A stretch of 64,000 nt of DNA from Clostridia bacterium (GTDB lineage Bacteria; Bacillota; Clostridia; UBA1212; UBA1255), in contig JAEFAM010000001.1 of assembly GCA_016287565.1 (NCBI GenBank), forward strand, positions 137,344-201,343, in the 5' to 3' direction. Each line of letters starts with the position of its first letter. Within the stretch, counting starts at the first letter, position 1. The notes below the pieces were generated by a model. The model saw only the letters and a program-made list of their open reading frames with translations, had not been told where the DNA came from and did no database searches. Made by a program: the position numbers and the translations under genes. Shown here piece after piece: positions 16,065 to 40,643 of the stretch.

Positions 16065-18524
16065 ATGACAAAGCCAATCCTCAAAAGAGAATACGCCCAT
16101 CCTGTTTCTTTCCCCCTTCCTCCGCTGTGCGCGCAGGCGCCGCTGGAATTCGAGTGGTTTCCCACAAGGGCCCACTGTTTCGTATTCCGGAATTACGGGC
16201 TGGCGGGCGTTGACCGGCTGGCGGCGGTGCTGGGCTGCGGTCCCGATGAGGTGGAACGGCTGGCAAAAGAGATGGGACTCGGTCCGGAGGATCGGGCGGC
16301 GGAGGGGTTCGAAGAGCGCGGCTTCGTGACGCTGGTGCGCAACAACTGGCACGTGCTCGACTACGACGGACTGGCAGCGCTGCTGGGTATTGACGTGAAC
16401 GAGCTGGCAAAGTTGCTCAGGGAAAGCGATTTTCTTGACGTTAAAATGGGTGGAAGCAAACCTCCGGCGGGCGGGATCGCGGTGGAGCAGCTGAAGCCGG
16501 GCGACGAGGAGAAGCTGGCGCTCATCCGGAGCGTTATGGACGGGATCCGGGACAATTACCGCGAGAAGGCCGCGGAGAGATTCGATTTTTTCAATTTTAA
16601 TTCTGGCGGGCAGGGTGGCTGTCCGGCTGAAGGTTCCGGGCGATCCGGGTCCGCGGAGGGACAATTCGCAGGCCGGTTCAGGAACCGCATGATCTATTCA
16701 TATTCCGCGGTCTTCGGGGACCTGTTCGGCGAAGGGGAGCGCGCCATCGAAAAGGCGTTTCCGGAGGAATTGCTGGCGGAATATTCGCGGCTGGGAATCA
16801 ACGGGTTGTGGGCGCCTGCGCTTTTGAGAGAACTGGCGCCGTTTCCGTTTTTTGGCGATGCGGTTGACGGCGGTCCGGCCGCAAATAACGAGGCTTTTGC
16901 CGCGGAGGTTGCCGGTCAATACCAAAAACGCCTGGAAAATATGCGGAAAACCGTTGACAGACTCGGTCGGTACGGCATCCGGCTGTTCATCTACCTGAAC
17001 GAGCCCCGGAGCCTGCCGGAGGAAGCGTTTCGCGATCATCCGTCAATAAAAGGCGACGTGTCCGGCAGCGACGCGTCCCTGTGCGTTGCCGCGGACGAAG
17101 TGAGAAACTGGCTCAGGGACAGCGCGGAATATATTGTCAGAAACGTGCCCGGCCTGGGCGGGTTCATCACCATCACCGCCTCCGAGAACAAGACGAACTG
17201 CTACAGCGGCTGGATGGGGAAACCTCCCGCAGGGACCGGTTGCCCGCACTGCTCGCGGCTGTCCCGGGAACGTGTGTTCGCGGACGTCAATAACCTGATC
17301 GCGGAGGGTGCAAAGCGCGCGGATCCGAATTTTGAAGTCATTGCCTGGAACTGGGGCTGGGACGCGCCCGGCAGCAGCGAGGCGTCTCTTCGGGCGCTTG
17401 ATTTTCTGGACAACGGGATCTCGGCCATGTGCGTCAGCGAGGGCGGCGCCCGCAAGAACGTCAAGGGCACGGAGACGGTGGTGATAGATTATTCCATCTC
17501 GGTGGGAGGCCCCGGGGAGTGCGCGAGATCGTTCTGGGGCAAGGCCGCGTCGCAGGGGAGGCGGAGTTACGCGAAGATGCAGGTGTCGAACACCTGGGAG
17601 ATCTCAGCGGTGCCTTTTTTGCCTGTTTTCAGGACGGTTTACGGCCACCTGAAGCGGATCTGCGAGACCGGGAGCGTGACCGATCTGATGCTGGGCTGGA
17701 CGCTGGGCGGTTATCCCGGCGACACGCTCAGAATGGCGTCGTTCTTTTACGGAGACGCAGGGGAGAACCGTCGGAGCGCACGAATCGGGCAGGACGGAGA
17801 GAACGGACAGAAATTGCCGGTACCGCCGCTGGAAGAGATATACCGGAAAATGTATCCGGGAGCGTGCGTTGACAGACTCGCCGCGGCCTTTGACGCGTTT
17901 TCCGACGCATTCGACAGCTACCCCTTTTCGCTGGGTACGATCTACACGGCCCCGTTCCAGTACGGCCCCGCGAACCTGCTGTTCACGAAAAAGACGGGTT
18001 ACCGGGCAACGATGGTAGGTTTCCCTTATGACGACGTTGACAGCTGGCGGTCGAATTTTCCCGGGGACACGTTTCGGGCGTGTCTGGAGGAGATGGCGGA
18101 CAAGTGGGAAAAAGGTCTCGAACTGCTTGACGGCGAGCTGGACAATATCCGGAAAACGGTGGATAATTGCAAAAAAAGTGGGGAAAACTGCGAAAAAAGC
18201 GTGGAAAACGTTGAAACGAGTGTGGATACGCTTCGCGTCCTCGAGAGCATCCGGACGATCTCCGAGGCAGTGCTTGTCCATTTCCGGTCGGTGCTGAACC
18301 AGTTCGCGTTTGTGTGCGACAGGGACAGAGGCGTTGTCCGCAGGGACCTTTTGGAGAGCGAATCGGCTCTTGCAATGCGGCTGATCGGCTGCGTCCGGAA
18401 TGATCCGCGCATCGGCTTCGAGGCGTCCAACCACTATTTTTACACGGAGAGAAATCTGGCGGAAAAGATGATCAACTGCGAGTACTTGTTGAGAACGTCC
18501 GGCTGTTCTCATGTGGAAAGGTGA
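16065..18524 (+). CDS. Hypothetical 819-aa protein, possibly a TIM-barrel (clan GH-A-like) glycoside hydrolase.
   Basis: YLNEP motif (clan GH-A acid/base-like), CVSEGG, NWGWDAPG and a Cys cluster CPHCS. No signal peptide. Its C-terminal codons run into a repeat element. Confidence 0.65.
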   Translation: MTKPILKREYAHPVSFPLPPLCAQAPLEFEWFPTRAHCFVFRNYGLAGVDRLAAVLGCGPDEVERLAKEMGLGPEDRAAEGFEERGFVTLVRNNWHVLDYDGLAALLGIDVNELAKLLRESDFLDVKMGGSKPPAGGIAVEQLKPGDEEKLALIRSVMDGIRDNYREKAAERFDFFNFNSGGQGGCPAEGSGRSGSAEGQFAGRFRNRMIYSYSAVFGDLFGEGERAIEKAFPEELLAEYSRLGINGLWAPALLRELAPFPFFGDAVDGGPAANNEAFAAEVAGQYQKRLENMRKTVDRLGRYGIRLFIYLNEPRSLPEEAFRDHPSIKGDVSGSDASLCVAADEVRNWLRDSAEYIVRNVPGLGGFITITASENKTNCYSGWMGKPPAGTGCPHCSRLSRERVFADVNNLIAEGAKRADPNFEVIAWNWGWDAPGSSEASLRALDFLDNGISAMCVSEGGARKNVKGTETVVIDYSISVGGPGECARSFWGKAASQGRRSYAKMQVSNTWEISAVPFLPVFRTVYGHLKRICETGSVTDLMLGWTLGGYPGDTLRMASFFYGDAGENRRSARIGQDGENGQKLPVPPLEEIYRKMYPGACVDRLAAAFDAFSDAFDSYPFSLGTIYTAPFQYGPANLLFTKKTGYRATMVGFPYDDVDSWRSNFPGDTFRACLEEMADKWEKGLELLDGELDNIRKTVDNCKKSGENCEKSVENVETSVDTLRVLESIRTISEAVLVHFRSVLNQFAFVCDRDRGVVRRDLLESESALAMRLIGCVRNDPRIGFEASNHYFYTERNLAEKMINCEYLLRTSGCSHVER

Positions 18525-18599
18525 CAGTGGAACGGTGACAGACTTGAGTTTTCGTGCCGTCAAACGGTTCTCGAACGGGTGACAGACTTGATTTAATTT
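18520..18599 (+). repeat. Dispersed repeat element E1 (modules A+, B+, A+) overlapping the stop codon of the upstream CDS.
   Basis: AACGGTGACAGACTTGAGTTTT / CGTGCCGTCAAACGGTTCTCG / AACGGGTGACAGACTTGATTT. Confidence 0.8.
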
Positions 18600-18676
18600 C
18601 CCGGCTCGGGTAAGATACCGGCGAAGGGCCGTTGACCCAAAACGAGCGGATGCAGTAGATAAGGAGCAAGGCAGAT

Positions 18677-19963
18677 ATGGCGGAAGCAGCGGAGAAACGT
18701 GTTGACCCGGGAGCAGGAGCAGAAGAGCCGAGGCCGGAGCCGAGAGTTGCCCGGTTCGAGCAGCTGGCGTTCGGGATGTTTGTGCATTTCGGGCTTTATT
18801 CGATACTGGGGCGCGGCGAATGGGTGCGCGAGATCGAAAAGATCCCGGCGGACGAGTACGAGCCGCTGGCCGGGCGGTTCGAGCCGGGCAATATGCGGCA
18901 GATCGTCAAGGTCGCGAAGGCGGCGGGCTGTTCGTACGTGACGTTGACAACGCGGCATCACGACGGTTTTTCGTTGTACGATGCAGGCGAAGCGAATGAG
19001 AATGTTTGCGATGCTTTTGACGCGGTCAGGTCAGCCGCCGGGCGCGATCTGGTTGCCGAATTTGTTGACGCGTGCCGGGGCGAGGGGCTGTTGCCGTTCT
19101 TTTATCACACGACGCTGGACTGGCACCGGCGGGAATTTCGCGAGGATTTCCCGGCGTATTTGCGGTATCTGGAGCGGAGCGTGGAGATCCTGTGCCGGAA
19201 TTACGGGCCGGTGGGCGGTTTCTGGTTCGACGGCAACTGGTCGCGAAACGACGTTGACTGGCAGGAAGAGAGGCTTTACAAGCTGATCCGGCGACTTCAG
19301 CCGGAGGCGATGATCATCAACAACACCGGGCTGGAGGCGCGCGGCAAACTCGGGTGCGAGGAAATCGACGCGGTCACCTTCGAGCGAGGGCGGCCTGATC
19401 CGATGGACCGGCGGGGGCAACCGAAATACGTTGCCGCGGAGATGTGCGAGACGCTTTGCGACCATTGGGGCAAGGCGGCGCTTGACGTCAATTTCAAGTC
19501 GGTGGGCCTGCTGATCGAGGAGCTTTGCGAGTGCCGGAAGGTTGGGGCCAATTTTTTGCTGAACGTGGGGCCGGACGGTGACGGTTCGGTGGACGGTATG
19601 CAGCGGGCGACGATGGAGTGCATCGGGCGCTGGATGAGCGTGTATGGAAGGGCGATCCGCAACGGGCGTCCTTTTTTGCGTTATCCTGACCGGCGGGAGT
19701 TCCTGCTCCGCGACGCTTTTGACGACAATGTCGCGTATCTTTTTAAATTTGATCCTTCGAAATATGTGGAGCCGGGGCCGGTCGCGCCGGACGCCAACCG
19801 TCTGGTGCTGGGGCGGATCCCGGGAAAAGTCGCGTCGATCCGCTGGATGGACGGGAAAGAGGCGGCTTTCGAGCAGCGCGGCAACGAGCTGGCGGTGGAG
19901 CTGACGCCTTTTCCGTACGGGACGAGCTTTCCGGTGCGGGTGGCGGAGGTCGTGTTTGAATAA
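18677..19963 (+). CDS. Alpha-L-fucosidase (GH29).
   Basis: FGMFVHFGLYS...AKAAGCSYVTLTTRHHDGFSLYD...FWFDGNW are diagnostic GH29 motifs. Confidence 0.85.
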   Translation: MAEAAEKRVDPGAGAEEPRPEPRVARFEQLAFGMFVHFGLYSILGRGEWVREIEKIPADEYEPLAGRFEPGNMRQIVKVAKAAGCSYVTLTTRHHDGFSLYDAGEANENVCDAFDAVRSAAGRDLVAEFVDACRGEGLLPFFYHTTLDWHRREFREDFPAYLRYLERSVEILCRNYGPVGGFWFDGNWSRNDVDWQEERLYKLIRRLQPEAMIINNTGLEARGKLGCEEIDAVTFERGRPDPMDRRGQPKYVAAEMCETLCDHWGKAALDVNFKSVGLLIEELCECRKVGANFLLNVGPDGDGSVDGMQRATMECIGRWMSVYGRAIRNGRPFLRYPDRREFLLRDAFDDNVAYLFKFDPSKYVEPGPVAPDANRLVLGRIPGKVASIRWMDGKEAAFEQRGNELAVELTPFPYGTSFPVRVAEVVFE

Positions 19964-20094
19964 GCGAGAACCGTTTGACGGCACGCAAAAAGCAAGTCTG
20001 TCACGCGTTCGCACCTCGGAAAAACCAAGTCTGTCACCTGTTCGCTTACCCGTCTAAACGGCTTCGCGTGAATACCTAAATAAGGAAGACAATT
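19964..20094 (-). repeat. Dispersed repeat element E2 (B-, A-, A-, partial C, D). Module D AATAAGGAAG supplies the RBS of the downstream gene.
   Basis: GCGAGAACCGTTTGACGGCACG, two CAAGTCTGTCAC units, TTACCCGTCTAAACGGCTTCGCG, then CCTAAATAAGGAAGACAATT just before the ATG. Confidence 0.8.
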
Positions 20095-21036
20095 ATGAGC
20101 AATATCATTGAAATAAACAGCCTCGACGCACCTGAACTTGACCCGATCCTGCGGCTCACCGGCCGCCAGCTGGTCAATAAATTGCACCCCGACGAGGGGT
20201 CGTTCGTCGTCGAGAGCCCGATCGCTATTGACGCGGCGCTTACCGCCGGGTGCGAACCCGTGGCGCTGCTGGTGGAGGAGCGGTTCATCCGGGGCAATAT
20301 GCAGGGCAGGGCGGCGGAAATCGTTGACCGTGTCGGCAATGCGCCGGTCTACGTGGCTTCCCGGGAGCTGCTTGCGGGAATAACCGGCTTCGAGCTGACG
20401 CGCGGGGCAATGTGCGTGATGCGGAGGCCGGCGGAGCGGGGCTGGCGCGAGGTGATTGCCGGGGCAAGAAGGGTCGCCGTGCTGGAAAATATCGTTGACA
20501 GCACTAACGTGGGGGCAATTTTTCGCTCTGCCGCGGGGCTGGGCATTGACACGGTGCTGCTGACGCCCGAGTGCTGCGATCCGCTGTGCAGGCGTGCGGT
20601 GCGCGTGAGCATGGGGACGGTGTTGATGGTGCCTTTTGCGCGGATCTGCGAGGAAGCGGAAAACAGGCCGCGAACGGGGGACAGACTTGGGTTTTCGCCG
20701 GCGCGAACGGGGGACAGACTTGGGTTTTCGCCGCCGCGAACGGGTGACAGACTTGAGTTTTCCGGGTCCGGCTGGCCTCTTCCGGCGATCGACGAATTGA
20801 AAAAAAGCGGGTTCAAACTGGCGGCAATGGCGCTTCGCGACGACTCTCTGGCGGTCAACGACCCTGCCCTTCGCTCGGCGGAGAAGCTGGCGATCGTTCT
20901 GGGCACGGAGGGTGACGGACTTCTGCAGGAGACGATCGACAATTGCGATTACACGGTCTGCATTCCCATGGCGGGGCGGGTCGATTCATTGAACGTCGGA
21001 GCCGCAGCGGCCATCGCATTTTTCGAAATGGTTTAA
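20095..21036 (+). CDS. TrmH/SpoU-family RNA 2'-O-methyltransferase (RlmB-like), carrying an in-frame 33-aa insertion derived from the repeat element.
   Basis: SpoU motifs VLENIVDSTNVGAIFRSAAGLG, LAIVLGTEGDGL, CIPMAGRVDSLNVGAAAAIAF. An inserted (RTGDRLGFSPA)x3 segment sits between conserved blocks. Confidence 0.85.
   Translation: MSNIIEINSLDAPELDPILRLTGRQLVNKLHPDEGSFVVESPIAIDAALTAGCEPVALLVEERFIRGNMQGRAAEIVDRVGNAPVYVASRELLAGITGFELTRGAMCVMRRPAERGWREVIAGARRVAVLENIVDSTNVGAIFRSAAGLGIDTVLLTPECCDPLCRRAVRVSMGTVLMVPFARICEEAENRPRTGDRLGFSPARTGDRLGFSPPRTGDRLEFSGSGWPLPAIDELKKSGFKLAAMALRDDSLAVNDPALRSAEKLAIVLGTEGDGLLQETIDNCDYTVCIPMAGRVDSLNVGAAAAIAFFEMV
20668..20765 (+). repeat. Three tandem 33-nt copies of repeat module A inside the TrmH-family CDS (in-frame).
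   Basis: CGAACGGGGGACAGACTTGGGTTTTCGCCGGCG x2 plus CGAACGGGTGACAGACTTGAGTTTTCCGG. Confidence 0.85.
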
Positions 21037-21043
21037 GTCAGGT

Positions 21044-21208
21044 GCGAACAGGTAACAGACTTGAGTTTTTGTCCTACCTCATTTAAAAACCAGCGAGAAG
21101 CCGTTTAGACTGGTAAGAATTTTGTCTTTCCAAAATTCGTGCCGTCAAACGGTTCTCGTGCGAACAGGTGACAGACTTGAGTTTTTCCCTTGAGTTTTTC
21201 CTCTTTCC
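21044..21208 (+). repeat. Dispersed repeat element E4 (A+, C-, B+, A+, partial tail).
   Basis: GCGAACAGGTAACAGACTTGAGTTTTT ... CGAGAAGCCGTTTAGACTGGTAAGAATTTTGTCTTTCCAAAATT CGTGCCGTCAAACGGTTCTCG TGCGAACAGGTGACAGACTTGAGTTTTT. Confidence 0.8.
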
Positions 21209-21266: not shown

Positions 21267-21300
21267 CACCAACTGCAAAACCATCAACGGAGGATCGATC

Positions 21301-22664: not shown

Positions 22665-22722
22665 GAGCGGTTCGCGGAAAAACTTGGGTTTTAATCCCGC
22701 CCGAAGATAAAAAGGAGTCGAC

Positions 22723-24300
22723 ATGAAAAAATTTTTAGGCATCGAACTGGGATCCACGAGGATAAAATCCGTCCTCACCGACGAACGGGGGACAGTGATC
22801 GCGAAAGGCATATTCGACTGGGAAAACAGGCTTGTCCGGGGGCTGTGGAGCTACGACCTGGACGAAGCGCTGCGAGGCCTGGCGGAGAGTTACAAAGAGC
22901 TCTCGGAGGAATATGCGAAAAAAACGGGAGAAACGCTGAAAAAAGTTGACGCGGTGGGAATTTCCGGCATGATGCACGGATATCTGGCGCTGGACGACGA
23001 AGACCGGCAGGTGGGGATATTCCAGACGTGGCGCAACACCCACACGGAAGCCGCGGCGACGGAATTGTCCGAGCTGTTCCGGTTCAACGTGCCGCAGCGG
23101 TGGAGCGTTGCCCAGTATTACCAGGCGGAGCTGTCCGGCGAGGACCACGTCAGGCATGCGGCGAAGCTGTTCACGCTGGCGGGGTACGTGCATTACAGGC
23201 TCACGGGCAACCACGTGTCGGGCGTGGGCGAGGCGTCGGGCATGTTTCCGGTGAACGGGAACGATTACGACGGAACAATGATCGAGGCGTTCGACAGGCG
23301 GCTGGCCGAGCGGGGGCTCCAGGTGCGGTTCCGTCAACTGCTTCCGAGGATCCAGATGGCGGGCGAGATCGGCGGCTATCTGACGCCCGAAGGCGCGAAA
23401 CTGATCGATCCCAGCGGCGAGCTGCTGCCGGGAGCGCCGCTGTGCCCTCCCGAAGGCGACATTCAGACCAATATGGTCTGCGCCAACTCCATCGCGGCGG
23501 GCGCGGGCAACGTTTCTGCCGGCACTTCCTGCAATCTGGTTGCCGTGCTGGACAAGCTTCCGGCCACTTACAGCCCCGACATCGACATCGTTTCCACGCC
23601 CGACGGATTGCCCGCGGCAATGATACATTCCAACAACTGCACTTCCGAGATCAACGCCTGGATCAACCTTTTCGGTGAATTGACCGCGCTTTTCGGACGG
23701 GAAGTGCCTAAAAACGAGCTTTTCCGGCAGCTTTTCCGCCATTCGCTGGAGAGCGACGGCGACGTGGGCGGCCTCGTGGGGTACAACTACCTGGCGGGCG
23801 AGGCCATTGCCGGGTGCGAGACCGGCGCCCTGACCGTCTCCCGCAACCCCTCGGGCAAGCTTTCTCTTGCCAACTTTATGCAGATGCAGATCTATTCCGC
23901 GCTGGGTGCGCTGTCTCTCGGCGTGGACAATCTTCGTTCCATCGGGGCCAACATCCGTTTCGTTACGGCGGCGGGCGGCTATTACAAGACCGAGTTCGTG
24001 GGGCAGAACGCTACTTCGTCAATGTTTGGCGTTCCCGTGACGGTGATGGCGGGCGCGGGCGAGGGCGGCCCCTGGGGCATGGCCCTGCTGGCGATCTATA
24101 TGTTCGTCGCGAACGGGGGACAGACTTGCGTTCGCGGCGGTGAGCTGACGCTGGCGCGGTTCCTGGACGACGTCTTTGCCGACGTGGAGAAGACTACCGT
24201 CATGGCGACGCAGGAGGAGATCGACAAGTGCCGCCGGTTTACCGAGAGGTACAAGAAGTGCCTTGACGCGCAGCGCAGGATGACGGAGCTTATTCGATAA
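22723..24300 (+). CDS. FGGY-family carbohydrate kinase (putative xylulokinase) with a 9-aa in-frame repeat-derived insertion.
   Basis: GIELGSTRIKSV N-terminal ATPase motif. About 525 aa. Follows xylA. RBS AAAGGAG. The NGGQTCVRG segment is encoded by the repeat. Confidence 0.8.
   Translation: MKKFLGIELGSTRIKSVLTDERGTVIAKGIFDWENRLVRGLWSYDLDEALRGLAESYKELSEEYAKKTGETLKKVDAVGISGMMHGYLALDDEDRQVGIFQTWRNTHTEAAATELSELFRFNVPQRWSVAQYYQAELSGEDHVRHAAKLFTLAGYVHYRLTGNHVSGVGEASGMFPVNGNDYDGTMIEAFDRRLAERGLQVRFRQLLPRIQMAGEIGGYLTPEGAKLIDPSGELLPGAPLCPPEGDIQTNMVCANSIAAGAGNVSAGTSCNLVAVLDKLPATYSPDIDIVSTPDGLPAAMIHSNNCTSEINAWINLFGELTALFGREVPKNELFRQLFRHSLESDGDVGGLVGYNYLAGEAIAGCETGALTVSRNPSGKLSLANFMQMQIYSALGALSLGVDNLRSIGANIRFVTAAGGYYKTEFVGQNATSSMFGVPVTVMAGAGEGGPWGMALLAIYMFVANGGQTCVRGGELTLARFLDDVFADVEKTTVMATQEEIDKCRRFTERYKKCLDAQRRMTELIR
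24108..24136 (+). repeat. Single repeat module A (palindromic CGCGAACG-GGGGACAGACTTG-CGTTCGCG) inserted in-frame in the FGGY kinase CDS.
   Basis: Identical 27-nt core to the copy at 39299-39327. Confidence 0.8.
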
Positions 24301-24302: not shown

Positions 24303-24450
24303 ACGCGAACCGTTTGACGGCACGAAGCGCGAACCGTTTGAGGGCACGAATTTTGGAAAGACAAAATTCTTACCCGCCTAAACGGCTTCGCGCGGGTTTT
24401 AAATAAGGAAAGAATTGCCCGAAACCCAAGTCTGTCACCTGTTCGCGGGC
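24303..24450 (-). repeat. Dispersed repeat element E6 (B-, B-, C, D, A-).
   Basis: GCGAACCGTTTGACGGCACGAA x2, AATTTTGGAAAGACAAAATTCTTACCCGCCTAAACGGCTTCGCG, TTAAATAAGGAAAG, CCCAAGTCTGTCACCTGTTCGCG. Confidence 0.8.
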
Positions 24451-24474: not shown

Positions 24475-24503
24475 TTGACACGTCCGGGCAACGCTTTTAT
24501 AAT
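24475..24503 (+). promoter_or_regulatory. Consensus sigma-A promoter (TTGACA, 17 bp, TATAAT) for the downstream lipoprotein gene.
   Basis: Perfect hexamers and spacing read directly. RBS GGGAGGG before ATG 24531. Confidence 0.6.
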
Positions 24504-24530: not shown

Positions 24531-26378
24531 ATGAAGAAAAGAACGCGCATAACAGTATTGACGCTCGCACTGGCGCTGGCCGCGGCGATATTGACCGGGC
24601 TCAGTTCCTGCGGAAAAACGGGCGGTGACGGAGATCCCAACCGGTTGTCGCGGGAGGACCAGGCGAGGGCGGAAAAACTGTTGTCCTCGGTGAGCGTGTC
24701 GGAGGTCCCGGCCATCAAAAACGAGAAGGTCGCCGCGGCGCAGGAGGATCCGGACATTTCGGTGTGGTTCGACCATTCGTTCCGCAACACGCCGGCGGAG
24801 GACGTGACGCCCACAGATTTCGACGCGTACCAGATCAAGCTGGCGAAAAACGAGATCGAGGGGTGCCACTTTATTGTCGCCTCGAAAACGGCGAAAACCG
24901 ATATTTCGCTCTCGGTATCGCCATTCATTGACGCTGCGGGGCACGTTCTGGACTGCGAGGTGTGCTACGGCTGGTATTTCGAGGGCGTCGAGGGCAAGAC
25001 CGTCGCAGATCCGATCCCGGTGCTGGAGCACAGCTTCGATCTGGCCGCCGGACGCAGCCAGATGTTTATTATCAAGGTCAAATCTACCGCCGAAACGAAC
25101 GCGGGTCAATATTCTGCCGTGGTGACGTTGACGGACGGCGCGGGCAAGGAGCTGAAAAAGGCCAACGTTTATGCATTCGTATGGGATTTTGCCCTTCCCG
25201 CCGCCTCCAGCTGCAAGACGCTCAGCGACCTCAACGAATGGAGCGTGATCGTGGGCGCCAACCGCGAAGAGACCACCGTTGACGGTCTCGAAGACGATCT
25301 TTACGCGCTTTATTACGAATATTTGCTGGAAAATAAGATAAATTGCTACACTTTGCCCTACGCGAAACGGGGCCAGTTTTGGGACGAGCGGGTGGAGCAG
25401 TACCTGGACGACCCGCGGCTGACGGCGTACACGCTGTGCTGGAAGATCCATCCGGAAGCCACTGCCAGCGACGACAACCTGAAAGCGTACCTCCAGGCGG
25501 CCTACGACCGGGTCTCGAAGAAGCAGGAGTGGCTGGACAAGGCATATTTTTACCCCAACGAGGGGGACGAACCGCTCACGCAGGCGACTCTGGACCTCAT
25601 AAAAAAGTACGATTCCATGTACACTGCCGTTTTCGGCAGCCACAAACTGATAATTCCCGTTCATTACGACACGGTACTGCCCTCCGGCGACGATTTCTTC
25701 CGCTATTTGGAGGATGCGGTCAACGTCTGGTGCCCGAAAACCTACTTTTTTAACACCGCGGCGGACAAAAAATACAACGATCAGCTCTACACGGAGTTCT
25801 ACGGACCCGAAATGGAGAGCAATTTCGGCCTGTTCAAAGACCGGATGGCCGCGGCCCGGGCGGACGGCGACGAAGTGTGGTGGTACGTCACCCGCTTCCC
25901 CCACGACCCCGAGATCACGTTGTCCATCAGCGACGAATCCGTGAAGCACCGCCTGCTGTTCTGGCAGCAAAAGCTGTACAACGTTGACGGATTTTTGTAT
26001 TACATGGTCAACGACTGGGAAAATGCCAAACAATGGACGAAAAAGTATGAGAGCGACGTCATGGGGACGACGGTCAACACCTACGGCAACGGCGTGCTGA
26101 TCTACCCGGGCGGGGCGCTTCAGGAATATATCGACAAGTACGGGAGCGACGGCTACCCGGGCCCCATCGGTTCGCTCAGGCTGGAGTCGGTGCGCGACGG
26201 GGTGGAAGATTACGATTATTTCACGATCCTCGATCAGCTTTACGGCGAAGGAACGTCAACCCTGCTGATCAGGCAGATCACCACGTCGCTGGGCTCTTAC
26301 AGCACGGACACGGAACTGTTCGACAGGCTGAGGACGGCGGCGGGGGACCTGATAGCGAAAAAGACTGCGCGAAACTGA
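24531..26378 (+). CDS. Lipoprotein with a DUF4091-like putative glycoside-hydrolase domain.
   Basis: Lipobox LTGLSSCG. 615 aa. VWDFALP and other blocks recalled as DUF4091-like. Assignment is from memory and is moderate. Confidence 0.7.
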   Translation: MKKRTRITVLTLALALAAAILTGLSSCGKTGGDGDPNRLSREDQARAEKLLSSVSVSEVPAIKNEKVAAAQEDPDISVWFDHSFRNTPAEDVTPTDFDAYQIKLAKNEIEGCHFIVASKTAKTDISLSVSPFIDAAGHVLDCEVCYGWYFEGVEGKTVADPIPVLEHSFDLAAGRSQMFIIKVKSTAETNAGQYSAVVTLTDGAGKELKKANVYAFVWDFALPAASSCKTLSDLNEWSVIVGANREETTVDGLEDDLYALYYEYLLENKINCYTLPYAKRGQFWDERVEQYLDDPRLTAYTLCWKIHPEATASDDNLKAYLQAAYDRVSKKQEWLDKAYFYPNEGDEPLTQATLDLIKKYDSMYTAVFGSHKLIIPVHYDTVLPSGDDFFRYLEDAVNVWCPKTYFFNTAADKKYNDQLYTEFYGPEMESNFGLFKDRMAAARADGDEVWWYVTRFPHDPEITLSISDESVKHRLLFWQQKLYNVDGFLYYMVNDWENAKQWTKKYESDVMGTTVNTYGNGVLIYPGGALQEYIDKYGSDGYPGPIGSLRLESVRDGVEDYDYFTILDQLYGEGTSTLLIRQITTSLGSYSTDTELFDRLRTAAGDLIAKKTARN

Positions 26379-26441
26379 AGTCTGTCACCCGTTCGAGAAC
26401 CGTTTGACGGCACGAAACTGAAGTCTGTCCCTCGTTCGGGG
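26378..26441 (-). repeat. Dispersed repeat element E7 (A-, B-, A-), starting at the stop codon of the upstream CDS.
   Basis: GAAGTCTGTCACCCGTTCG AGAACCGTTTGACGGCACGAA ACTGAAGTCTGTCCCTCGTTCGGGG. Confidence 0.8.
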
Positions 26442-29456: not shown

Positions 29457-30321
29457 AACGGTATTCAGTTACGGCTTCGTTTTCCGGGCAATGCTGGTGG
29501 GCGTCCTGATCTCGGTCTGCGCGGCGCTGCTCGGCGTCAGCCTGGTGCTCAGGCGCTGCTCCATGATCGGAGACGGGCTGTCCCACGTAGGCTTCGGAGC
29601 GCTGGCGGTCGCCGCGGCGCTGGGGGCCGCTCAATTGTGGGTGGCGCTACCGGTGGTCGTGGTGGTGGCTTTCCTCATAATAAGGCTGGGAGACGATTCC
29701 AAGCTCAGCAGCGATTCGGCCATTGCCCTGCTTTCCAGCGGCGTCCTTGCCCTGGGCGTCATGATCGTGTCGCTCACCGGCTCCAACACTAACCTCAGCG
29801 ACTTCCTGTTCGGATCGGTTTTTGCCCTCGGGGAAGCCGACGCGATCCTCAGCCTGGTGCTTTCCGTCATCGTACTGGCGCTTTTCGTGCTGTTCTACAA
29901 CAAGATCTTCGCAGTGACTTTCGATGCCGCGTTCGCCCGGGCGACCGGTACCCGCGAAGGTTTTTACAATACTTTCATCGCGCTGCTCACCGCCGTAACC
30001 GTGGTGGTCGGTATGCGTCTCGTTGGCGCCCTGCTCGTGACGAGCCTGATAATTTTCCCGCCGCTCACGGCAATGAGGGTCTGCAAGAAATTCCGCTCCG
30101 TGGTGATCTGCTCCGGCGTGCTGTCCGCGCTCAGCTTCGTCATCGGAATGATGATCTCCCTGGGCGTGCGCTCCGCTCCCGTGGGCGCCAGCGTCGTGCT
30201 GGTCAACGTGGTGTTTTTCCTGCTTTTCCTCTGCGCAGGGAAGGTCAGGTCAATGATCCGTACCCGGACCGACGGGGGCCGGGATGGTACGGATCCGCAG
30301 CCGGGGGACCGGGGACAATGA
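29425..30321 (+). CDS. Metal ABC transporter permease (ZnuB/MntB-like).
   Basis: MNAAIITDIFKTVFSYGFVFRAMLVGVLISV... polytopic ABC-3 permease pattern. Overlaps the znuC-like stop. Confidence 0.8.
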   Translation: MNAAIITDIFKTVFSYGFVFRAMLVGVLISVCAALLGVSLVLRRCSMIGDGLSHVGFGALAVAAALGAAQLWVALPVVVVVAFLIIRLGDDSKLSSDSAIALLSSGVLALGVMIVSLTGSNTNLSDFLFGSVFALGEADAILSLVLSVIVLALFVLFYNKIFAVTFDAAFARATGTREGFYNTFIALLTAVTVVVGMRLVGALLVTSLIIFPPLTAMRVCKKFRSVVICSGVLSALSFVIGMMISLGVRSAPVGASVVLVNVVFFLLFLCAGKVRSMIRTRTDGGRDGTDPQPGDRGQ

Positions 30322-31457
30322 CCGTTTCAACGGCCGTCCCGCCGGGCGCCCCTGCCGGAGAGGCGTCGTGTGCCCCGTCCGGCGCCCCGTCCTGCGCCCC
30401 GGCCGCCGCTGTTGCTCCTTCTTTCGGTCAACGCCTGAAGGCGGAATTCGGCCGGAAAGTTTACAAATTGTCCCTGGATATCGGCTGCACCTGCCCCACC
30501 CGCGACGGCACCAAAGGCACGCGCGGCTGCATTTTCTGCTCTCAGGCCGGCAGCGGCGACTTCGCCGTACGGTTCACCGGCAAACAGGAAGAACTTGACC
30601 TGGCCAAATCCCGTCTCAAAGGCAAGATCGACACGGACAATGCCGGTTTTATCGCTTATTTTCAAAATTTCACCAACACGTACGCTCCCGTTACGTACCT
30701 GGAGACGCTTTTCACCGCCGCGCTGAAAGACCCGTCGGTTGTGGCGTTGTCGATCGCCACGCGGCCCGACTGCCTCGGGAGCGACGTCATCGAAATGATC
30801 CGACGGCTGTGCCTGCGGACAACCATTTTCGTGGAGCTTGGCCTTCAGACCATCCATCCTGCCACCGCGGCTTTCATCCGCCGCGGCTTCGACCTGCGCG
30901 AGTACGACGATGCGGTGGTCGCGCTTCACGGCGCCGGCGCCAGGGTGGTGACCCACCTGATATTCGGGCTGCCTTATCCGGTTGCCGGACGCAAGTCTGT
31001 CCGAGAACCGTTTGACGGCACGAATTTTGGAAAAAACAAAATTCTTACCCGTCTAAACGGCTTCTCGCTGGTTCCGAACAAGGAAAGGAAGCAGGAACTA
31101 AGGCCTGTTATTTGTTCGGCTGAAACGGAACTGGCCCTCGAGTCGAGGGAAATGATGCTGGGATCGGTAAGATACGTTGTCCGCGCCGGAACGGACGGAG
31201 TGAAATTTCAGCTGCTCCACGTACTTAAAGGGACGGACCTGGCGGACCTGTACCTGCGAGGCGCGTTCAGAACGTTGACCTTCGACGAATACAAGGAAAT
31301 AATAAAAGAGGCAGCCGAGCTGCTGCCTCCCGAAATCGCCATTCACCGCCTCACCGGCGACCCGCCGCGAAAACTGCTGATCGCGCCACAATGGTGCACC
31401 GACAAAAAGCGGGTATTGAACGAGATCAATCGAAAAATTCTTCGTAAAGCGCCTTGA
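30318..31457 (+). CDS. TIGR01212-family radical SAM protein (YhcC-like), carrying an about 36-aa in-frame insertion encoded by a composite repeat element.
   Basis: GCTCPTRDGTKGTRGCIFCSQ radical-SAM Cys motif typical of TIGR01212. 379 aa against about 310 aa typical. The inserted segment VAGRKSVREPFDGTNFGKNKILTRLNGFSLVPNKERKQ maps onto repeat modules A-, B-, C. Confidence 0.8.
   Translation: MTVSTAVPPGAPAGEASCAPSGAPSCAPAAAVAPSFGQRLKAEFGRKVYKLSLDIGCTCPTRDGTKGTRGCIFCSQAGSGDFAVRFTGKQEELDLAKSRLKGKIDTDNAGFIAYFQNFTNTYAPVTYLETLFTAALKDPSVVALSIATRPDCLGSDVIEMIRRLCLRTTIFVELGLQTIHPATAAFIRRGFDLREYDDAVVALHGAGARVVTHLIFGLPYPVAGRKSVREPFDGTNFGKNKILTRLNGFSLVPNKERKQELRPVICSAETELALESREMMLGSVRYVVRAGTDGVKFQLLHVLKGTDLADLYLRGAFRTLTFDEYKEIIKEAAELLPPEIAIHRLTGDPPRKLLIAPQWCTDKKRVLNEINRKILRKAP
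30986..31091 (-). repeat. Composite repeat element E8 (A-, B-, C, D-like) lying entirely inside the radical SAM CDS, in-frame.
   Basis: CGGACGCAAGTCTGTCCGAG AACCGTTTGACGGCACGAA TTTTGGAAAAAACAAAATTCTTACCCGTCTAAACGGCTTCTCG ...AACAAGGAAAGG. Confidence 0.8.
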
Positions 31458-35851: not shown

Positions 35852-36057
35852 GCAGGGGACAGAGGAGCAACGGGGGACAGACCCCGGTTGCCGATGCCGG
35901 AAACGCAAGTCTGTCCGCGAATCGTTTGACGGCACGAATTTTGGAAAGACAAAATTCTTACCCGTCTAAACGACTTCGCGCCGGTTTTGTAATAAGGAAA
36001 CAGAAGTCTGTTCCTCATTTCCTGGCGGGGAAACAGAAGTCTGTCCCTCGTTCGCGG
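35852..36057 (-). repeat. Dispersed repeat element E9 (partial A+, A-, B-, C, D, A-, A-).
   Basis: ...CAACGGGGGACAGAC; GGAAACGCAAGTCTGTCCGCG AATCGTTTGACGGCACGAA TTTTGGAAAGACAAAATTCTTACCCGTCTAAACGACTTCGCG ...TAATAAGGAAACAGAAGTCTGTTCC...CAGAAGTCTGTCCCTCGTTCGCGG. Confidence 0.8.
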
Positions 36058-36138
36058 TTGAAGACAGCGGGCCTTATGTGGTATATTATTGGAAGAATAT
36101 TGACCCTGTTGACGCGGACGACGCGGGAGGGAGCAGAA

Positions 36139-36906
36139 GTGGAACGCAAAAAAGAGAGTGTTGACCGGAAGAGCGGAGCAGGCGGGGAGAAACTGCCTGT
36201 GGTCGCCGTCGTTCTTGCCGCGGGCAAGGGCAGGCGCATGGGGACGGCGGTCCCGAAGCAGTTTGCCGAAGCGGAAGGGCGGCCGGTGCTGGCCTATACT
36301 GTGGAAAAGTTCCAGGAACACCCGGAAGTTGACGGGATCATCGTGATATGCGGCCGCGGAAGCAGGAAAATTGTCACCGAAATATGCAAAAAAAGCAATT
36401 TCTCGAAAGTCAAGCGCGTTGCCGCCGGAGGAAGGACCAGGCGCGAGTCCTCATACAAGGGGGTCAAGGCCGCCGAAAAGCTGTACGGCGACTGCGTGGT
36501 TCTGATCCACGACGCGGCGAGGCCCAACGTGACCGGGAGCGTGATCTCGGACAATATCCGCCTGGCAAAGAAGTTCGGCGCCTGCGTAACGGCGGCCAGG
36601 GCCGTCGACACGGTAGTGACCAGCGTCGACGGGCAGCTGATTTCGGGCCTCATCCCCAGGGACACGGTCTGGACGGTCCAGACGCCCCAGTCCTTCCGGC
36701 TCGGCGTGATCCTGAACGCCCACGAACTGTACGAACAATCGATCGCCGCAGGAGAAAACGTCCCCGATATCACCGACGACGGAAGCCTGGTGAGGTTTGC
36801 CGGCGGCGAAGTTGCCATCTGCGAATCCGGCCGCGACAATTTTAAATTGACGGTTCCCGCCGATCTGGAACTGTTCCGGGCGATGCTGAAAAGAGGGAAA
36901 ACGTAA
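36139..36906 (+). CDS. ispD: IspD/TarI-family cytidylyltransferase (2-C-methyl-D-erythritol 4-phosphate or ribitol-5-phosphate cytidylyltransferase).
   Basis: LPVVAVVLAAGKGRRMG...PKQF...HDAARP...VQTPQSF. GTG start preceded by GGGAGG. The ORF frame extends upstream into the repeat. IspD versus TarI cannot be distinguished from the sequence alone. Confidence 0.7.
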   Translation: MERKKESVDRKSGAGGEKLPVVAVVLAAGKGRRMGTAVPKQFAEAEGRPVLAYTVEKFQEHPEVDGIIVICGRGSRKIVTEICKKSNFSKVKRVAAGGRTRRESSYKGVKAAEKLYGDCVVLIHDAARPNVTGSVISDNIRLAKKFGACVTAARAVDTVVTSVDGQLISGLIPRDTVWTVQTPQSFRLGVILNAHELYEQSIAAGENVPDITDDGSLVRFAGGEVAICESGRDNFKLTVPADLELFRAMLKRGKT

Positions 36907-38427
36907 ATGAAGAACCCGCAAAATTATTTAAGATCCGGCAATTCCGAACGTTCCCGGTTGAAACTGTCCGAAAACGCCAAGACCGCCCTGCTGGCCACCA
37001 TCAGCAGCCTGCTGTTCCTTGTCCTCATCTTCGCCACTTACGGCAAGGCAGGCTCCGACGCCTATAAAAAGCACGGTTCCTTCGACAGCTACACGCTGCA
37101 GGCGCTGGCATGGCGCAGAGGCGAGGCCAAACTTGACCAGAACTATCCGCACCTGGAGCTGGCGATCATCAACCGGGAGTGGCTGGCGACCCACGACAAG
37201 GACGACTATATGGCGTACCGGGAGACCTTCGGAGACGTGAACGCCCCGATCCAGCACGTTGAGGGCAACGAATATTACGTCAGTTTCCCGCCCACGCCCT
37301 CTGTCCCCATGCTGTTGCTCAGCTTCATTTTCGGCCGCCAGACGCCGGACAATTTCATGACCATATTGTACGTGGTGGGTTCCTTCGCCCTTGCCATCTT
37401 AATAGGCAGGCGGCTCAAATACGGCTGCATCGCCTCGCTGGCAGGAGGGTTGCTATCCTGCGCAGCCTCCGGAGCCTTCTTCCTGGCGGCCGACAAATAC
37501 GCCGGAGGCCCCTGGTTCGCCGCCCAGACGCTGAGTATGCTGTTGACGCTGGCCGCGTTTTACACCATGCTGAGCGAGCGGAAGATAGGCATGTACCTGG
37601 CCTTCGCGTTCCTTGCCCTGGCCGTGGGCTGCAGGCCTTTCCAGATAATCTACTTCGTGCTGCTGGCATACGTTGCCGCGAAAAAATACGATTTCAAGAT
37701 CTTAAAAACGTGGAAATATTACGTGGCTCCGGCGCTCATCGGCGGGGCCTATATGTGGTACAACTACATCCGCTTCGGCAATATCCTGGAATTCGGCCAC
37801 AACTACCTGCCTGAATTCATGCGCACCGAATACAGCAAATTCGCTCTGGAAAACGTGAAGGGCAATATTTCCCCGTATTTCAAGACTTTTCCCACGTACA
37901 ACAACGGAAAACTGGAATTTTCCCAGTACGGATTTACGTTCTACGTTTCAAACGTGATATTCATTCTGGCCGGACTGGCGCTGCTGCTGTTCGCCGCCTA
38001 CGCCATACTGAGATTCATTGACCTCCGCAAAAAGGGAGGCGGTCCCGGCAATGCCGTCGGAGAGGCGATCGCACTTCCGGACACGGTGGAAACGGCAAGG
38101 AAATTCTCCGTCTTCCGCGACACTCCCGTAGTGGAAGTTATTATTTTGACGGTATGCGGGGCGATCGAACTCTTCCTCCTTATGATGCACCGCACCGCCG
38201 GCGGATGGCAGTTCGGCATGCGCTACACTGTGGACATCGTTCCCGCAGCGCTGCTTCTCATCGGATATTCCGTCAAACCCTTCTTCCGCAAAGTGAAATG
38301 TTACGGCCCGGACAAAACGTCTAAATTCGCCCTTATGGCCCGTGGCGCCCTCGTTTTGCTGGGAGCGGTCCTGGTGGTATTCGGCATGTGGCTGAATATC
38401 TACGGATCGTATCTGTTGCTGAAATAA
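36907..38427 (+). CDS. Polytopic membrane protein, possibly a GT-C-fold glycosyltransferase. Start abuts the cytidylyltransferase stop (TAAATG).
   Basis: About 12 predicted TM helices with an extracytoplasmic loop after TM1. 506 aa. No specific family recognised. Confidence 0.65.
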   Translation: MKNPQNYLRSGNSERSRLKLSENAKTALLATISSLLFLVLIFATYGKAGSDAYKKHGSFDSYTLQALAWRRGEAKLDQNYPHLELAIINREWLATHDKDDYMAYRETFGDVNAPIQHVEGNEYYVSFPPTPSVPMLLLSFIFGRQTPDNFMTILYVVGSFALAILIGRRLKYGCIASLAGGLLSCAASGAFFLAADKYAGGPWFAAQTLSMLLTLAAFYTMLSERKIGMYLAFAFLALAVGCRPFQIIYFVLLAYVAAKKYDFKILKTWKYYVAPALIGGAYMWYNYIRFGNILEFGHNYLPEFMRTEYSKFALENVKGNISPYFKTFPTYNNGKLEFSQYGFTFYVSNVIFILAGLALLLFAAYAILRFIDLRKKGGGPGNAVGEAIALPDTVETARKFSVFRDTPVVEVIILTVCGAIELFLLMMHRTAGGWQFGMRYTVDIVPAALLLIGYSVKPFFRKVKCYGPDKTSKFALMARGALVLLGAVLVVFGMWLNIYGSYLLLK

Positions 38428-38442
38428 ACGCTTTTTAAACGG

Positions 38443-38560
38443 TAATATATTTCCCGGGAAATATTACACGGCGTCGGGAAATAACCGTAAATTTCGAAAA
38501 ACGCCGCGTAAATTCCGGAAAATTACGGAAAAACCCGGGAAATTCCGGGAAAAGTCCGGC
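38443..38560. repeat. Second cluster of TTTCCCGGGAAA-type palindromes (ATATTTCCCGGGAAATATTAC; AACCCGGGAAATTCCGGGAAAAG) upstream of GH36-like gene #2.
   Basis: Same motifs as 28550-28660. Confidence 0.6.
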
Positions 38561-38597
38561 AATGCCGGCGAACAAAAGGAAATCAGGAGTTGTTGTT

Positions 38598-40643
38598 ATG
38601 AAACCGTCAAAAACAGATCTTGCCCTCGGAAAATATCTGCCCCGCTTCACCGAAAGCGGCATCGTCCCCTTCAGCTACAAGCTCGACGGAGTTGCCTATA
38701 ATGGCATCCCCGCGGAATTTTCGCCCAAAGCGGAAACGCGTAAGATCGACGCCAACATCATCTTCTCGGTGATCACCGGCAGGACGCCCGCGGGCCTGGA
38801 GCTCAGGGCCGAATGCAAAGAATATATCGATTATCCCGTGACCGAATGGGTCATGTCTATGACGAACACGGACTCCGCGAATTCGGCGGTGATAACCGGC
38901 TGGCAGGCAGAAGCGGAATTTCCGTTGACGCCATTCAACGAGGAGGCTCCGGAGCCGCGGGACGGGAAAAATAACGCGAAACTTCTCCACGGCAACGGCG
39001 ACAACGTCACCGATCAGGGCTACTCCTGGTTCGTTGACGCGCTGTGCCCCGAGCCCCTCTGCATCGCGCCCTCGGGAGACGGGACCTCCTGCAACGGCGC
39101 ATTCCCGTACATGCGGCTGATCCTGGACGGGTACGACGTCAATATCGCCGTGGGCTGGACCGGGACCTGGCAGCTGACCGCCTCCGAGAGCGGCGGGACC
39201 GTCAAGATCGCTGCGTCTCAGAAGCGTTTCAACACCTACCTCGAACCCGGTGAGACGGTGCGCACCCCGCTGCTGGTGCTCCAGACCGCTTCCGACTGCC
39301 GCGAACGGGGGACAGACTTGCGTTCGGCCGGATGCGACCAGGACGCTGCCCGCAACCTCTGGCGCAGCTGGTACATCGACCACGTGCTGCCCAGGCAGGA
39401 CGGCAGACCCCTTCAGCCCAAGCTGGTGCTCCACACGTTCATGATAGATGGATTGCCCGAATTTTGCGGCGTCACCGAAGAAAACCAGCTAAAAGCGATA
39501 CAGACGTATATTGACCGCCGCCTCAAACCGGACATCTGGTGGATCGACGCAGGCTGGTACCCCTGCAACAACAACTGGCCCACGGGCACCGGCAACTGGT
39601 TCCCGAACCCGGATCATTTCCCCGACGGCATGCATAAGGTCGGAGAAATATGCAAGGCAAACGGCATCGACCTGCTGCTCTGGTTCGAGCCGGAGCGCGT
39701 CTACCGTAACACGGAGCTTTGGAACGACCACCCCGAATATCTGATCTTCGGTGCCCCCGAGGACGACAACGCACTCCTGTTTCTGGGCGATCCCGCCGCC
39801 CGCAGGTGGATCACCGACCGTGTGGACAACGTCATCAAAGAGGCCGGGGTCAATGTCTACCGCCAGGATTTCAACTTCGCGCCTGCGAGCTACTGGGCCC
39901 GCGGCGAGGCGGACAACAGGCAGGGCATTCACGAAAACCTGCATATCCAGGGCTATTATGCATTCTGGGACGAGCTGCTCAGGCGCAACCCCGGGCTCTG
40001 GATCGACTCCTGCTCCTCCGGCGGCCGCCGCAACGACATAGAAACCATGAAGCGCGCCGTGCCCCTCCACTACACCGACATCGGCTACGGCCACCATCCC
40101 ACCAAACAGAAGCAGCACCGCCAGATGTTCGAGTGGATACCATATTTCCGCGCCCACAATATGAGCTGGGACAGGCCAGACGGCACCTACGGCGGCAATA
40201 TGCCCGTTGACGAGTTCGCGTACCAGAACGCCCTCACGCCCTCCGTCACCTCGATGATAGAGTGGAACGACCCGGAGGAGCGGTTCGAGATCGGCCGCGC
40301 GTTCCATCCCATCTGGCGAAAAGCGGCCGAGATCATGCTCCGCGCCGATTACTACCCGTTGACCGAGACCAACGCCAGCCCCGCCGACTGGTATGCCATG
40401 CAGTTCTACGATCCGGAGCGCCGGGACGGTTTCGTCCAGGTGATACGTAATATTGCCGTCGAGGATGGCCGGACGACGCTTTTCGGCTTCGTTCCGGAGG
40501 AAAATCTCCACAGGATCTACCGGTTCTACGACCCGGTCTCCAATCAGGTCTGGACCATGTCCGGCGAGAATTTCCGCTCGGGCGGCTTCGAGGAGACGCT
40601 CCCGAAACGCAGCGGCAGGATCTGGTTCTATTGTGTTTTGTGA
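38598..40643 (+). CDS. GH36-like glycoside hydrolase, cytoplasmic paralog of 4418-6541, carrying a 9-aa in-frame repeat-derived insertion.
   Basis: WWIDAGWY, LLLWFEPE, YRQDFNF, CSSGGRRND motifs. RBS AGGAG. CRERGTDLRS is extra relative to the paralog. Confidence 0.8.
   Translation: MKPSKTDLALGKYLPRFTESGIVPFSYKLDGVAYNGIPAEFSPKAETRKIDANIIFSVITGRTPAGLELRAECKEYIDYPVTEWVMSMTNTDSANSAVITGWQAEAEFPLTPFNEEAPEPRDGKNNAKLLHGNGDNVTDQGYSWFVDALCPEPLCIAPSGDGTSCNGAFPYMRLILDGYDVNIAVGWTGTWQLTASESGGTVKIAASQKRFNTYLEPGETVRTPLLVLQTASDCRERGTDLRSAGCDQDAARNLWRSWYIDHVLPRQDGRPLQPKLVLHTFMIDGLPEFCGVTEENQLKAIQTYIDRRLKPDIWWIDAGWYPCNNNWPTGTGNWFPNPDHFPDGMHKVGEICKANGIDLLLWFEPERVYRNTELWNDHPEYLIFGAPEDDNALLFLGDPAARRWITDRVDNVIKEAGVNVYRQDFNFAPASYWARGEADNRQGIHENLHIQGYYAFWDELLRRNPGLWIDSCSSGGRRNDIETMKRAVPLHYTDIGYGHHPTKQKQHRQMFEWIPYFRAHNMSWDRPDGTYGGNMPVDEFAYQNALTPSVTSMIEWNDPEERFEIGRAFHPIWRKAAEIMLRADYYPLTETNASPADWYAMQFYDPERRDGFVQVIRNIAVEDGRTTLFGFVPEENLHRIYRFYDPVSNQVWTMSGENFRSGGFEETLPKRSGRIWFYCVL
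39299..39327 (+). repeat. Single repeat module A inserted in-frame in GH36-like gene #2.
   Basis: CGCGAACGGGGGACAGACTTGCGTTCGG. The paralog at 4418-6541 lacks these codons at the aligned position. Confidence 0.85.

Follow-up and report, generated by a model that had tools for sequence, protein, structure and literature searches.

Where does a family of short repeats that crowds one part of a bacterial chromosome come from, and what has moved it? The question is raised by a 64-kb stretch of a Clostridia bacterium genome (contig JAEFAM010000001.1, hereafter the window), in which four short modules, here called A, B, C and D, recur at eleven sites (E1-E11) between and inside genes. Judged by sequence comparison, these repeats are DNA-level elements, unstable and mobile. 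Module A is probably the amplified end-sequence of a TIRtron, that is, of a domesticated RAYT-like transposase gene of the TIRYT type (Y1 class) with non-hairpin inverted repeats, which lies upstream of the window.

Module A contains the core GACAGACTTG, which has 13 exact matches in the window (both strands, 18537-39320) against 0.07 expected by chance; shuffled windows never held more than one. A profile of 29 aligned copies, searched with nhmmer at E<0.01, finds 17 copies at 11 sites, and degenerate copies are present in addition at 22667 and 35996. The repeat family of the preliminary description is therefore real, and the 10-mer which it gave as the core does recur, but the conserved block of module A is really about 25 nt long. 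The consensus of 50 copies reads GcGAAC-ggGk-GACAGACTT-g-nGTTt, with an invariant 9-mer, and the core of the module is GGGGACAG; the ~25-nt block (module-A sequence GCGAACGGGGGACAGACTTGCGTTCG) is a candidate recognition site. The copies are found in either orientation, without polarity, as single copies or direct tandem arrays. Neighbouring copies fall into two spacing classes, 31-35 bp and 42-46 bp, and the extra room of the second class is often taken up by module B. The profile finds no copy in window 1-18.5 kb or 39.4-64 kb, in agreement with the preliminary description, and in a self-comparison of the window all A, B, C and D repeats are confined to eleven short segments.

The window itself contains no transposase gene and no tRNA gene. 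By extending contiguous sequence leftward from its first gene we reached a Y1 (HUH) transposase gene (L125 9021-9800, minus strand; about -10.4 to -9.6 kb in window coordinates), which encodes a protein of 259 aa. The protein matches Pfam Y1_Tnp with 66.6 bits; its best family match is NCBIfam REP_Tyr_transpos (74.6 bits; the IS200 model gives 21.8). In the PDB the one sequence match is 4ER8, E. coli TnpA-REP (E=3e-4), a chain of 165 aa, with whose catalytic residues the HUH motif (HVH) and the tyrosine of RYIHNNP are aligned. The gene is located between inverted A copies (L125 8693-8714 and 9896-9917; 22 nt, 86% complementary), and the copy upstream of it carries GGGGACAG. In a relative with ~94% nucleotide identity (L129) the gene is syntenic and likewise flanked by A copies; the proteins are 95% identical, with 51 synonymous and 13 non-synonymous codon differences. 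The exact protein is found on 7 contigs, as is the case for neighbouring single-copy genes. The gene is apparently single-copy, and these comparisons point to vertical inheritance and purifying selection. One member of its protein cluster is labelled 'REP element-mobilizing transposase RayT' by JGI. The 66-aa N-terminus, used as a query, found no candidate.

Concerning known systems, TIRtrons are RAYT-like genes (TIRYT) located between non-hairpin inverted repeats with the motif GGGGWSAS (Di Nocera et al. 2013, PMC3733652). In some species these repeats are amplified into moderately abundant families, which occur as singles, dimers and clusters (PMC3733652). TIRYT genes form subclass 2.1 of TnpA-Y1: the proteins are long and have a C-terminal helix-turn-helix (HTH; Bac_DnaA_C, HTH_23 or HTH_28), with no repetitive extragenic palindromic (REP) sequence nearby (Quentin et al. 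2018, PMC6006769). This is the second-largest Y1 subclass (PMC6006769), and its activity and target have not been demonstrated. The locus described here resembles them in several ways: the Y1 HUH protein is RAYT-like and longer than RAYTs, the gene is flanked by non-hairpin inverted repeats with GGGGWSAS, and these repeats are amplified, standing alone, in pairs or in clusters. A putative HTH-like domain in the C-terminal tail, a weak match, would be a further likeness. The motif is matched by the A core GGGGACAG, and the strict fits include the copy upstream of the Y1 gene. Because module A matches the inverted repeats flanking a RAYT-like Y1 gene, we place it with the TIRtron/REPtron class. 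There are also differences: the described TIRtrons are from Proteobacteria, Acidobacteria and others, and Clostridia are not mentioned in PMC3733652, whereas the family studied here forms direct tandem arrays with two spacing classes, has in-frame intragenic copies and a palindromic module, and is gathered in patches near the gene (~103 kb examined).

The classical REP/BIME and REPIN systems with their RAYTs (E. coli, Pseudomonas; PMC3333891, PMC8266576, PMC5581495) share other traits with this family. In both, the repeats are short, high-copy and mainly intergenic and form mosaic clusters, and an apparently single-copy Y1 gene, vertically inherited and under purifying selection, has inverted flanking repeats. 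However, module A is non-palindromic and lacks the GTAG tag, the hairpins of modules B and C do not flank the Y1 gene, and the Y1 protein is just under the NCBIfam RAYT cut-off and has an extra putative HTH tail. The TIRtron class is thus the better fit, since module A matches GGGGWSAS and is not a REP-type palindrome. RAYT group 1 has been reported in Clostridia (PMC5581495). The preliminary description knew of no such family for this kind of organism; we also found none described for Clostridia, but the comparable TIRtron/REPtron class is published.

Joined to its extensions (L130, L125, L123), the window yields an uninterrupted ~103 kb that reaches from -30.6 to +72.8 kb on the window scale. 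At E<0.01 the profile finds 43 A copies there, in two patches only: 26 copies around the Y1 gene (-17.6 to -4.7 kb) and the 17 copies of the window (+18.5 to +39.3 kb). In the remaining ~69 kb the profile finds no A copy. The span first reported holds inside the window, but the family continues 4.7-17.6 kb upstream of it, and 'dispersed' is more than these ~103 kb show, since all copies in them sit in two patches close to the transposase gene. Such clustering would fit a local spread that started at this gene.

The copy-free 23 kb between the patches might conceivably be an island integrated later, which could account for its lack of A copies; the faint signs of this are a lower GC content, the nearby tRNA genes and a direct repeat of 135 bp. 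G+C is 50-54% in window 1-8 kb and 57-60% further on. The direct repeat (window 8-141 and L121 5391-5525, 94% identical, 4.4 kb apart, by two tRNA genes) brackets an AraC-type regulator gene and a 1012-aa gene. The anticodon arm of a tRNA gene upstream of the window (L121 5325-5350) has GGGGACAGACTGTAAATCTG, which agrees with the A core region in 12 of 13 bases, probably by chance. Opposed A arrays are seen in both patches: around a tRNA-like gene region (L125 3740-3840; three plus-strand copies at 3573-3687, two minus-strand copies at 3991-4054), around a 79-aa open reading frame (ORF) (L125 1756-1899 and 2359-2454), and around the fucosidase gene of the window (E1 and E2).

Comparison with the ~94% relative (L118, L122, L127) demonstrates how unstable the repeats are: the elements are at the same sites with different module content, and every intergenic site shows modules swapped, lost or gained. 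The FGGY kinase and melibiase-family genes contain one A copy in the window versus two in the relative, and the SpoU gene contains three versus two. The radical-SAM gene of the relative is exactly 135 bp (45 codons) shorter, with the empty site CCGGTTGCC^GAGACGGAAC; at most 1 nt is common to the junctions of the 135-bp unit, so there is no target duplication. The presence/absence polymorphism for which the preliminary description had suggested a strain comparison is thus found for this unit, together with differences in module content at ~94% identity. In more distantly related genomes (L119, L120 and L128, at 70-81% nucleotide identity) the family is missing from the 18, 9 and 16 kb, respectively, that were compared. 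L128 has neither a Y1 gene at the equivalent position nor any A or B copy in its 16 kb, a joint absence in favour of a link between the two. At the position held by the Y1 gene in the window lineage, L128 carries a different repeat family, in which a ~100-bp unit bearing ACGGCCGCA/TGCGGCCGT palindromes stands about 5-6 times in tandem (640-1200, upstream of smc). The melibiase of L119 is not an orthologue (21% identity) and therefore provides no empty site.

These repeats are not remnants of a local duplication, since their flanks are unrelated at more than 20 sites. They could have been spread by host processes only, that is, by slippage, gene conversion and illegitimate recombination through GCGAAC/GTTCGC and core homologies, with the Y1 protein as a bystander or acting on another target. 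We regard this as unlikely. Most of the variation does consist of gain and loss of tandem units and of module swaps at shared sites, module A lacks a hairpin, inverted ends and target duplication, and according to the literature tyrosine-transposase genes and repeat families are not correlated in any simple way (PMC3733652). Slippage, however, cannot seed more than 20 separate sites with unrelated flanks, or four unrelated genes; a coding region holds the 135-bp composite as one discrete unit, and the Y1 gene is flanked by inverted copies with the published TIRYT motif.

The copies inside genes, at four sites, bear out the preliminary description, which had reported modules within genes. E3 consists of three tandem 33-bp A units (20667..20766, plus strand) in frame in the SpoU methylase gene (20095-21036), where they encode RTGDRLGFSPA three times and interrupt the SpoU domain match, which falls into two parts. 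A length of 275-280 aa is typical of SpoU homologues, and the three units make the window protein 33 aa longer; the insert is not present in the more distant homologues of that length. Among relatives, the gene has four units at 94% identity, two at 91% and about three degenerate ones at 79%. E6 is a single A copy (24107..24135, plus) in the FGGY kinase gene (22723-24300), past the FGGY_C domain and read as ANGGQTCV; the two tandem copies of the relative add 11 aa. E11, also a single A copy (39299..39326, plus), is read as ERGTDLRS in the melibiase-family gene (38562-40643), and the two A copies of the relative are 42 bp apart. E9 is the 135-bp (45-codon) composite (30987..31121, minus) between two Pfam domains of the radical-SAM gene (30318-31457), in the order degenerate A - spacer - C - B - core; an extra adenine in its hairpin loop keeps the frame open past the TAA normally present in module C.

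Three of the four intragenic sites are between or outside Pfam domain matches, and the units add 11-45 residues to the proteins. Because the A copies use three frames (RTGDRLGF, ANGGQTCV, ERGTDLRS), with one reverse composite besides, the conserved object is the DNA and not a peptide, and a reading as a peptide motif is ruled out. ORFs that run through elements also give likely false N-terminal extensions in gene calls: the ispD ORF (window 35926-36906) has 91 extra residues ahead of its Pfam domain, and an FGGY kinase of a relative (P0138) has a 35-residue extension with CERVTDLNF, read through an A copy.

The other modules are fewer. Module B (a 21-mer) has 8 window matches at no more than 3 mismatches (0.01 expected) and module C (a 44-mer) has 3 (0 expected); a fourth C copy, with one extra base, is inside the radical-SAM gene. 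The D box AATAAGGAA, with 3 window matches versus 0.47 expected and 3 of 100 shuffles also reaching 3, is weak by itself, yet all three matches directly follow a C tail; the one at 20079-20087 is 7 nt before the SpoU start codon, a ribosome-binding-site-like position. The C tail is an inverted module-B-like arm, and reversed B, the AATTTTG/CAAAATT hairpin (7 bp) and the C tail form an imperfect palindrome of 69 nt. The short hairpin, which the preliminary description had seen within C, is therefore part of a stable 69-nt fold: the B-C unit reaches -18.3 to -21.6 kcal/mol (z -5.4 to -7.3) in all four window copies. Compensatory changes are found in two of its 25 consensus pairs (among 7 copies). 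With its two inverted REP-like arms and long hairpin, the unit of B, loop and C looks REPIN-like. Full composites (E4, E9, E10) are 135-150 bp long, in the order A - spacer/D - C - B - A.

Module A was also examined for structure. A 3-unit A array folds no better than shuffled sequences (z +0.87); pairing of the module's own arms gives -3.34 kcal/mol against -3.25 +/- 0.25 kcal/mol for permuted arms, 71 of 200 permutations being equally good, and the segments between adjacent A cores show no stable folding (mean z -0.42). The folding tests thus lend no support to a hairpin in module A, whether formed across the core or between adjacent units.

The stability and compensatory changes of the B-C unit, and the GGTTTT that follows its hairpin in E7 and E10, would suit RNA-level elements such as terminators, mRNA-stabilising hairpins or small RNAs. 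As an account of the family, chiefly of the B-C hairpin, this seems improbable: there is no Rfam match at E≤1 in window 17000-41000, the hairpin may point either way with respect to transcription and one copy lies within a gene, a DNA palindrome would show equal symmetry, and module A itself is unstructured. A terminator role is unsupported, since terminator-like sites show no enrichment and fall elsewhere than the elements. A role of the B-C hairpin at the RNA level is possible as a secondary use.

The remaining sites are intergenic. E1 is an A-B-A composite (18527..18594, plus; A 18529-18554, B 18553-18573, A 18571-18594; core spacing 44 bp) between an 819-aa gene (stop 18524) and the fucosidase gene, precisely at a synteny break versus L118. 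The relative (L118 148-8470, compared with window 18489-18594) has an additional 8.2 kb between the 819/859-aa and fucosidase genes, with AraC-type regulator, 1216-aa, 564-aa and DUF1349 genes; E1 is at that junction in the window, and the C-terminus of the protein upstream of E1 differs between the two. E2 (19964..20087, minus) contains B (19965-19985), two A copies 33 bp apart (19985-20013 and 20017-20046), a C tail (20046-20069, plus) and the D box before the SpoU ATG; the relative has a full C module in place of a window A. E4 (21043..21188, plus), downstream of the SpoU gene, is a full composite of A (21043-21071), spacer, reversed C (21094-21137), B (21138-21158) and A (21159-21188), whose hairpin reaches -18.3 kcal/mol (z -7.3). 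E5, a degenerate A (22667..22692, plus) between the XylA2-like and FGGY kinase genes, is a weak profile match; the relative has an intact A there (L118 12529-12557, 30 bits).

E7 (24303..24448, mixed strands) consists of two reversed B copies (24304-24324 and 24328-24348), C (24349-24392), D (24402-24410) and a reversed A (24419-24448), of which ~95 bp are missing in the relative; it lies just upstream of a perfect promoter, TTGACA-17-TATAAT (24475-24503). E8 (26368..26439, minus), between the GH123-like and AP_endonuc_2 genes, is an A-B-A composite (A 26368-26396, B 26394-26414, A 26412-26439), and the relative has B-C-A-A instead. E10 (35856..36056, mixed strands), between the divergent thrC-like and ispD genes, contains an inverted pair of partial A cores (35856-35890), core and B reversed (35897-35936), C (35937-35980), D (35991-35999) and reversed A-like copies (35996-36014 and 36028-36056); the content of this site in the relative is very different.

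Copies usually lie between an upstream stop codon and a downstream promoter, as E7 does, which raises the question of selected protein-binding sites: operators of a local regulon, iteron-like arrays, or sites for nucleoid or chromosome organisation, bound by the HTH tail of the Y1 protein or by another protein. The ~25-nt block is strongly conserved around its invariant 9-mer, spacings of ~33 and 44 bp are close to 3 and 4 helical turns, and the copies are gathered in two chromosomal patches. We nevertheless give this reading little weight. Both orientations occur and the distance to the promoter is not fixed, copy number and modules differ at the same site between ~94%-identical genomes, tandem copies are placed within coding regions in three frames, and more distant relatives with the same genes have none.

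The preliminary description had compared the architecture with miniature inverted-repeat transposable elements (MITEs), REPs and Rickettsia palindromic elements (RPEs). What stands of this is a mobile, unstable DNA repeat; module A is non-palindromic and lacks MITE-type inverted ends and target duplication. A DDE-derived MITE was rejected, as the 135-bp unit has direct A-type ends with at most 1 nt of junction sharing and no DDE transposase is encoded in the window. Integron attC sites, DNA-uptake sequences, parS-like sites and CRISPR, judged by their general features, were also rejected, because the symmetry, distribution or spacers that define them are lacking here.

BOX elements of Streptococcus pneumoniae are Gram-positive, intergenic and modular, with boxA, a variable number of boxB, and boxC. 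We know of no transposase for them and of no report of in-frame intragenic copies. They resemble the present family, by description and not by sequence, in their modular build and in having one module whose number of tandem copies varies. MIRU (Mycobacterium) and STAR (Staphylococcus) repeats consist of one short unit in tandem arrays at many intergenic loci, with strain-variable copy number. The tandem arrays of one short unit at many loci and in varying number are also found here; an associated transposase gene and a mosaic with a hairpin module, neither of which is known to us for MIRU or STAR, belong to the family studied here. RPEs and intragenic REPs (PMC3733652) are in-frame units in tolerant regions of conserved genes, as are the intragenic copies described above, but RPEs are palindromic whereas the intragenic units here are mostly the non-palindromic module A.

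How, then, could a TIRtron end-sequence have spread? Beside what is seen directly (the repeats, their anatomy and polymorphism, the transposase gene and its flanking copies), we infer that the Y1 enzyme moves the repeats by a single-strand mechanism with local hopping. The enzyme would recognise the ~25-nt A motif with its core GGGGACAG and would nick and rejoin single-stranded DNA, probably at replication forks; A-bounded segments would thereby be copied to nearby sites without target duplication. New copies would land by preference beside old ones, so that arrays spaced at 31-35 or 42-46 bp would build up and copies would gather in patches near the gene, and the arrays would lengthen or shorten afterwards by slippage or recombination between units. 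The palindrome of B, 7-bp hairpin and inverted B-like C tail would travel inside A-bounded composites of 135-150 bp. Intragenic copies would survive only if they are in frame and in tolerant linkers. That a TIRYT has been active recently, with an HTH-bearing Y1 protein recognising the non-hairpin ~25-nt site, copying A-bounded segments mainly in cis and so producing the repeat gradient, the in-frame insertions in housekeeping genes and the capture of an unrelated palindromic module, is a further and more tentative possibility.

Several observations weigh against the TIRtron reading of module A. The link between enzyme and repeats consists of adjacency and a motif match with the literature, and the strict fit to GGGGWSAS is found in only 18 of the 50 A copies, the others having mostly GGTGACAG. 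The flanking copy downstream of the Y1 gene carries TGGGACAG, and A copies fill nearly every intergenic gap near this gene, so that the flanking copies could be there by chance. The NCBIfam score of 74.6 is just under the curated cut-off of 80, and the C-terminal HTH_23 match is weak (residues 233-254, 16.4 bits, E=0.008; Pfam cut-off 24.6). Characterised Y1 transposases work on hairpins; module A has no reliable hairpin, across the core or between units, and A arrays are chiefly direct repeats rather than inverted pairs. The 135-bp difference is compatible with gain or loss. Neither module B nor module C is seen close to the transposase gene, so these two may have an origin separate from that of A.

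The window is otherwise an ordinary bacterial chromosome with ~57% G+C, and its genes include glycoside hydrolases, sugar kinases, threonine-pathway genes, ispD, recR and pnp. Contigs identical to it are present in several NCBI and JGI metagenome assemblies, and close homologues of its proteins are labelled as proteins of Clostridia bacterium metagenome-assembled genomes (MAGs). Genome contigs scanned with the degenerate GAACNGGNGACAGACTTG gave chance single matches among those listed, and metagenome contigs compared with the module-B 21-mer gave two chance matches in one unrelated gene; neither scan reached the organism itself. Viral contigs scanned for B and A gave 0 matches. Six-frame peptides of the elements had no match in the protein collection, a profile search with an ORF through the composite found two spurious repeat proteins only, and the core string occurred in full-text literature in primers only.

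Other repeats were seen as well. In the window, an 83-bp tandem unit (57043-57467; 5.1 copies, 88% matches) is located in a 1.4-kb gap upstream of rpsO-pnp; each unit includes an inverted repeat of its own, GGGCGTTTC...GAAACGCC, and the array shows no relation to the A/B/C family. A 43-bp unit (56083-56222; 3.3 copies, 97% matches) starts from the stop codon of the GDSL-lipase gene (54988-56091) and is followed by a run of 2.9 copies of TAACGAAAAA (56293-56321). A Kiritimatiellia MAG (L055, JAVEYH010000102.1, 4995-5095) has four GGGACAGAC(C/T)TT-type motifs in ~90 bp of intergenic sequence, two of them inside a repeated GCTCAAAAGAGGGACAGACCTT unit, with a GGGGWSAS-like core; these could be another TIRYT-type repeat, and no Y1 gene was seen in the 5.3 kb examined. 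A Stappiaceae MAG has at least 13 loci with long near-identical sequence around GAACAGGTGACAGACTTG, a multi-copy element with flanks unrelated to the A family (L005, L015, L016, L023, L026, L039, L040, L065, L081, L083, L093, L108 and L112).

The spread of REP-type repeats is still described as poorly understood (PMC8266576). On the sequence evidence, the Clostridia family appears to be a fresh example of the published TIRtron/REPtron class, and we found no such repeat family described in Clostridia. For the organism, the repeats lengthen conserved enzymes and mislead gene-start calls, and they probably fragment the assemblies of metagenome-derived genomes. For the class, the locus pairs an intact, conserved TIRYT-type gene with recently changed repeats (module differences at ~94% identity), and supplies, for tests of mobility, a candidate recognition site of ~25 nt together with a discrete unit of 135 bp that is either present or absent. 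If a TIRYT has indeed been active here recently, TIRYT-driven mobility would for the first time have left clear signs in nature, and the case would imply a recognition mode unlike that of the hairpin-dependent RAYT and IS200 enzymes.

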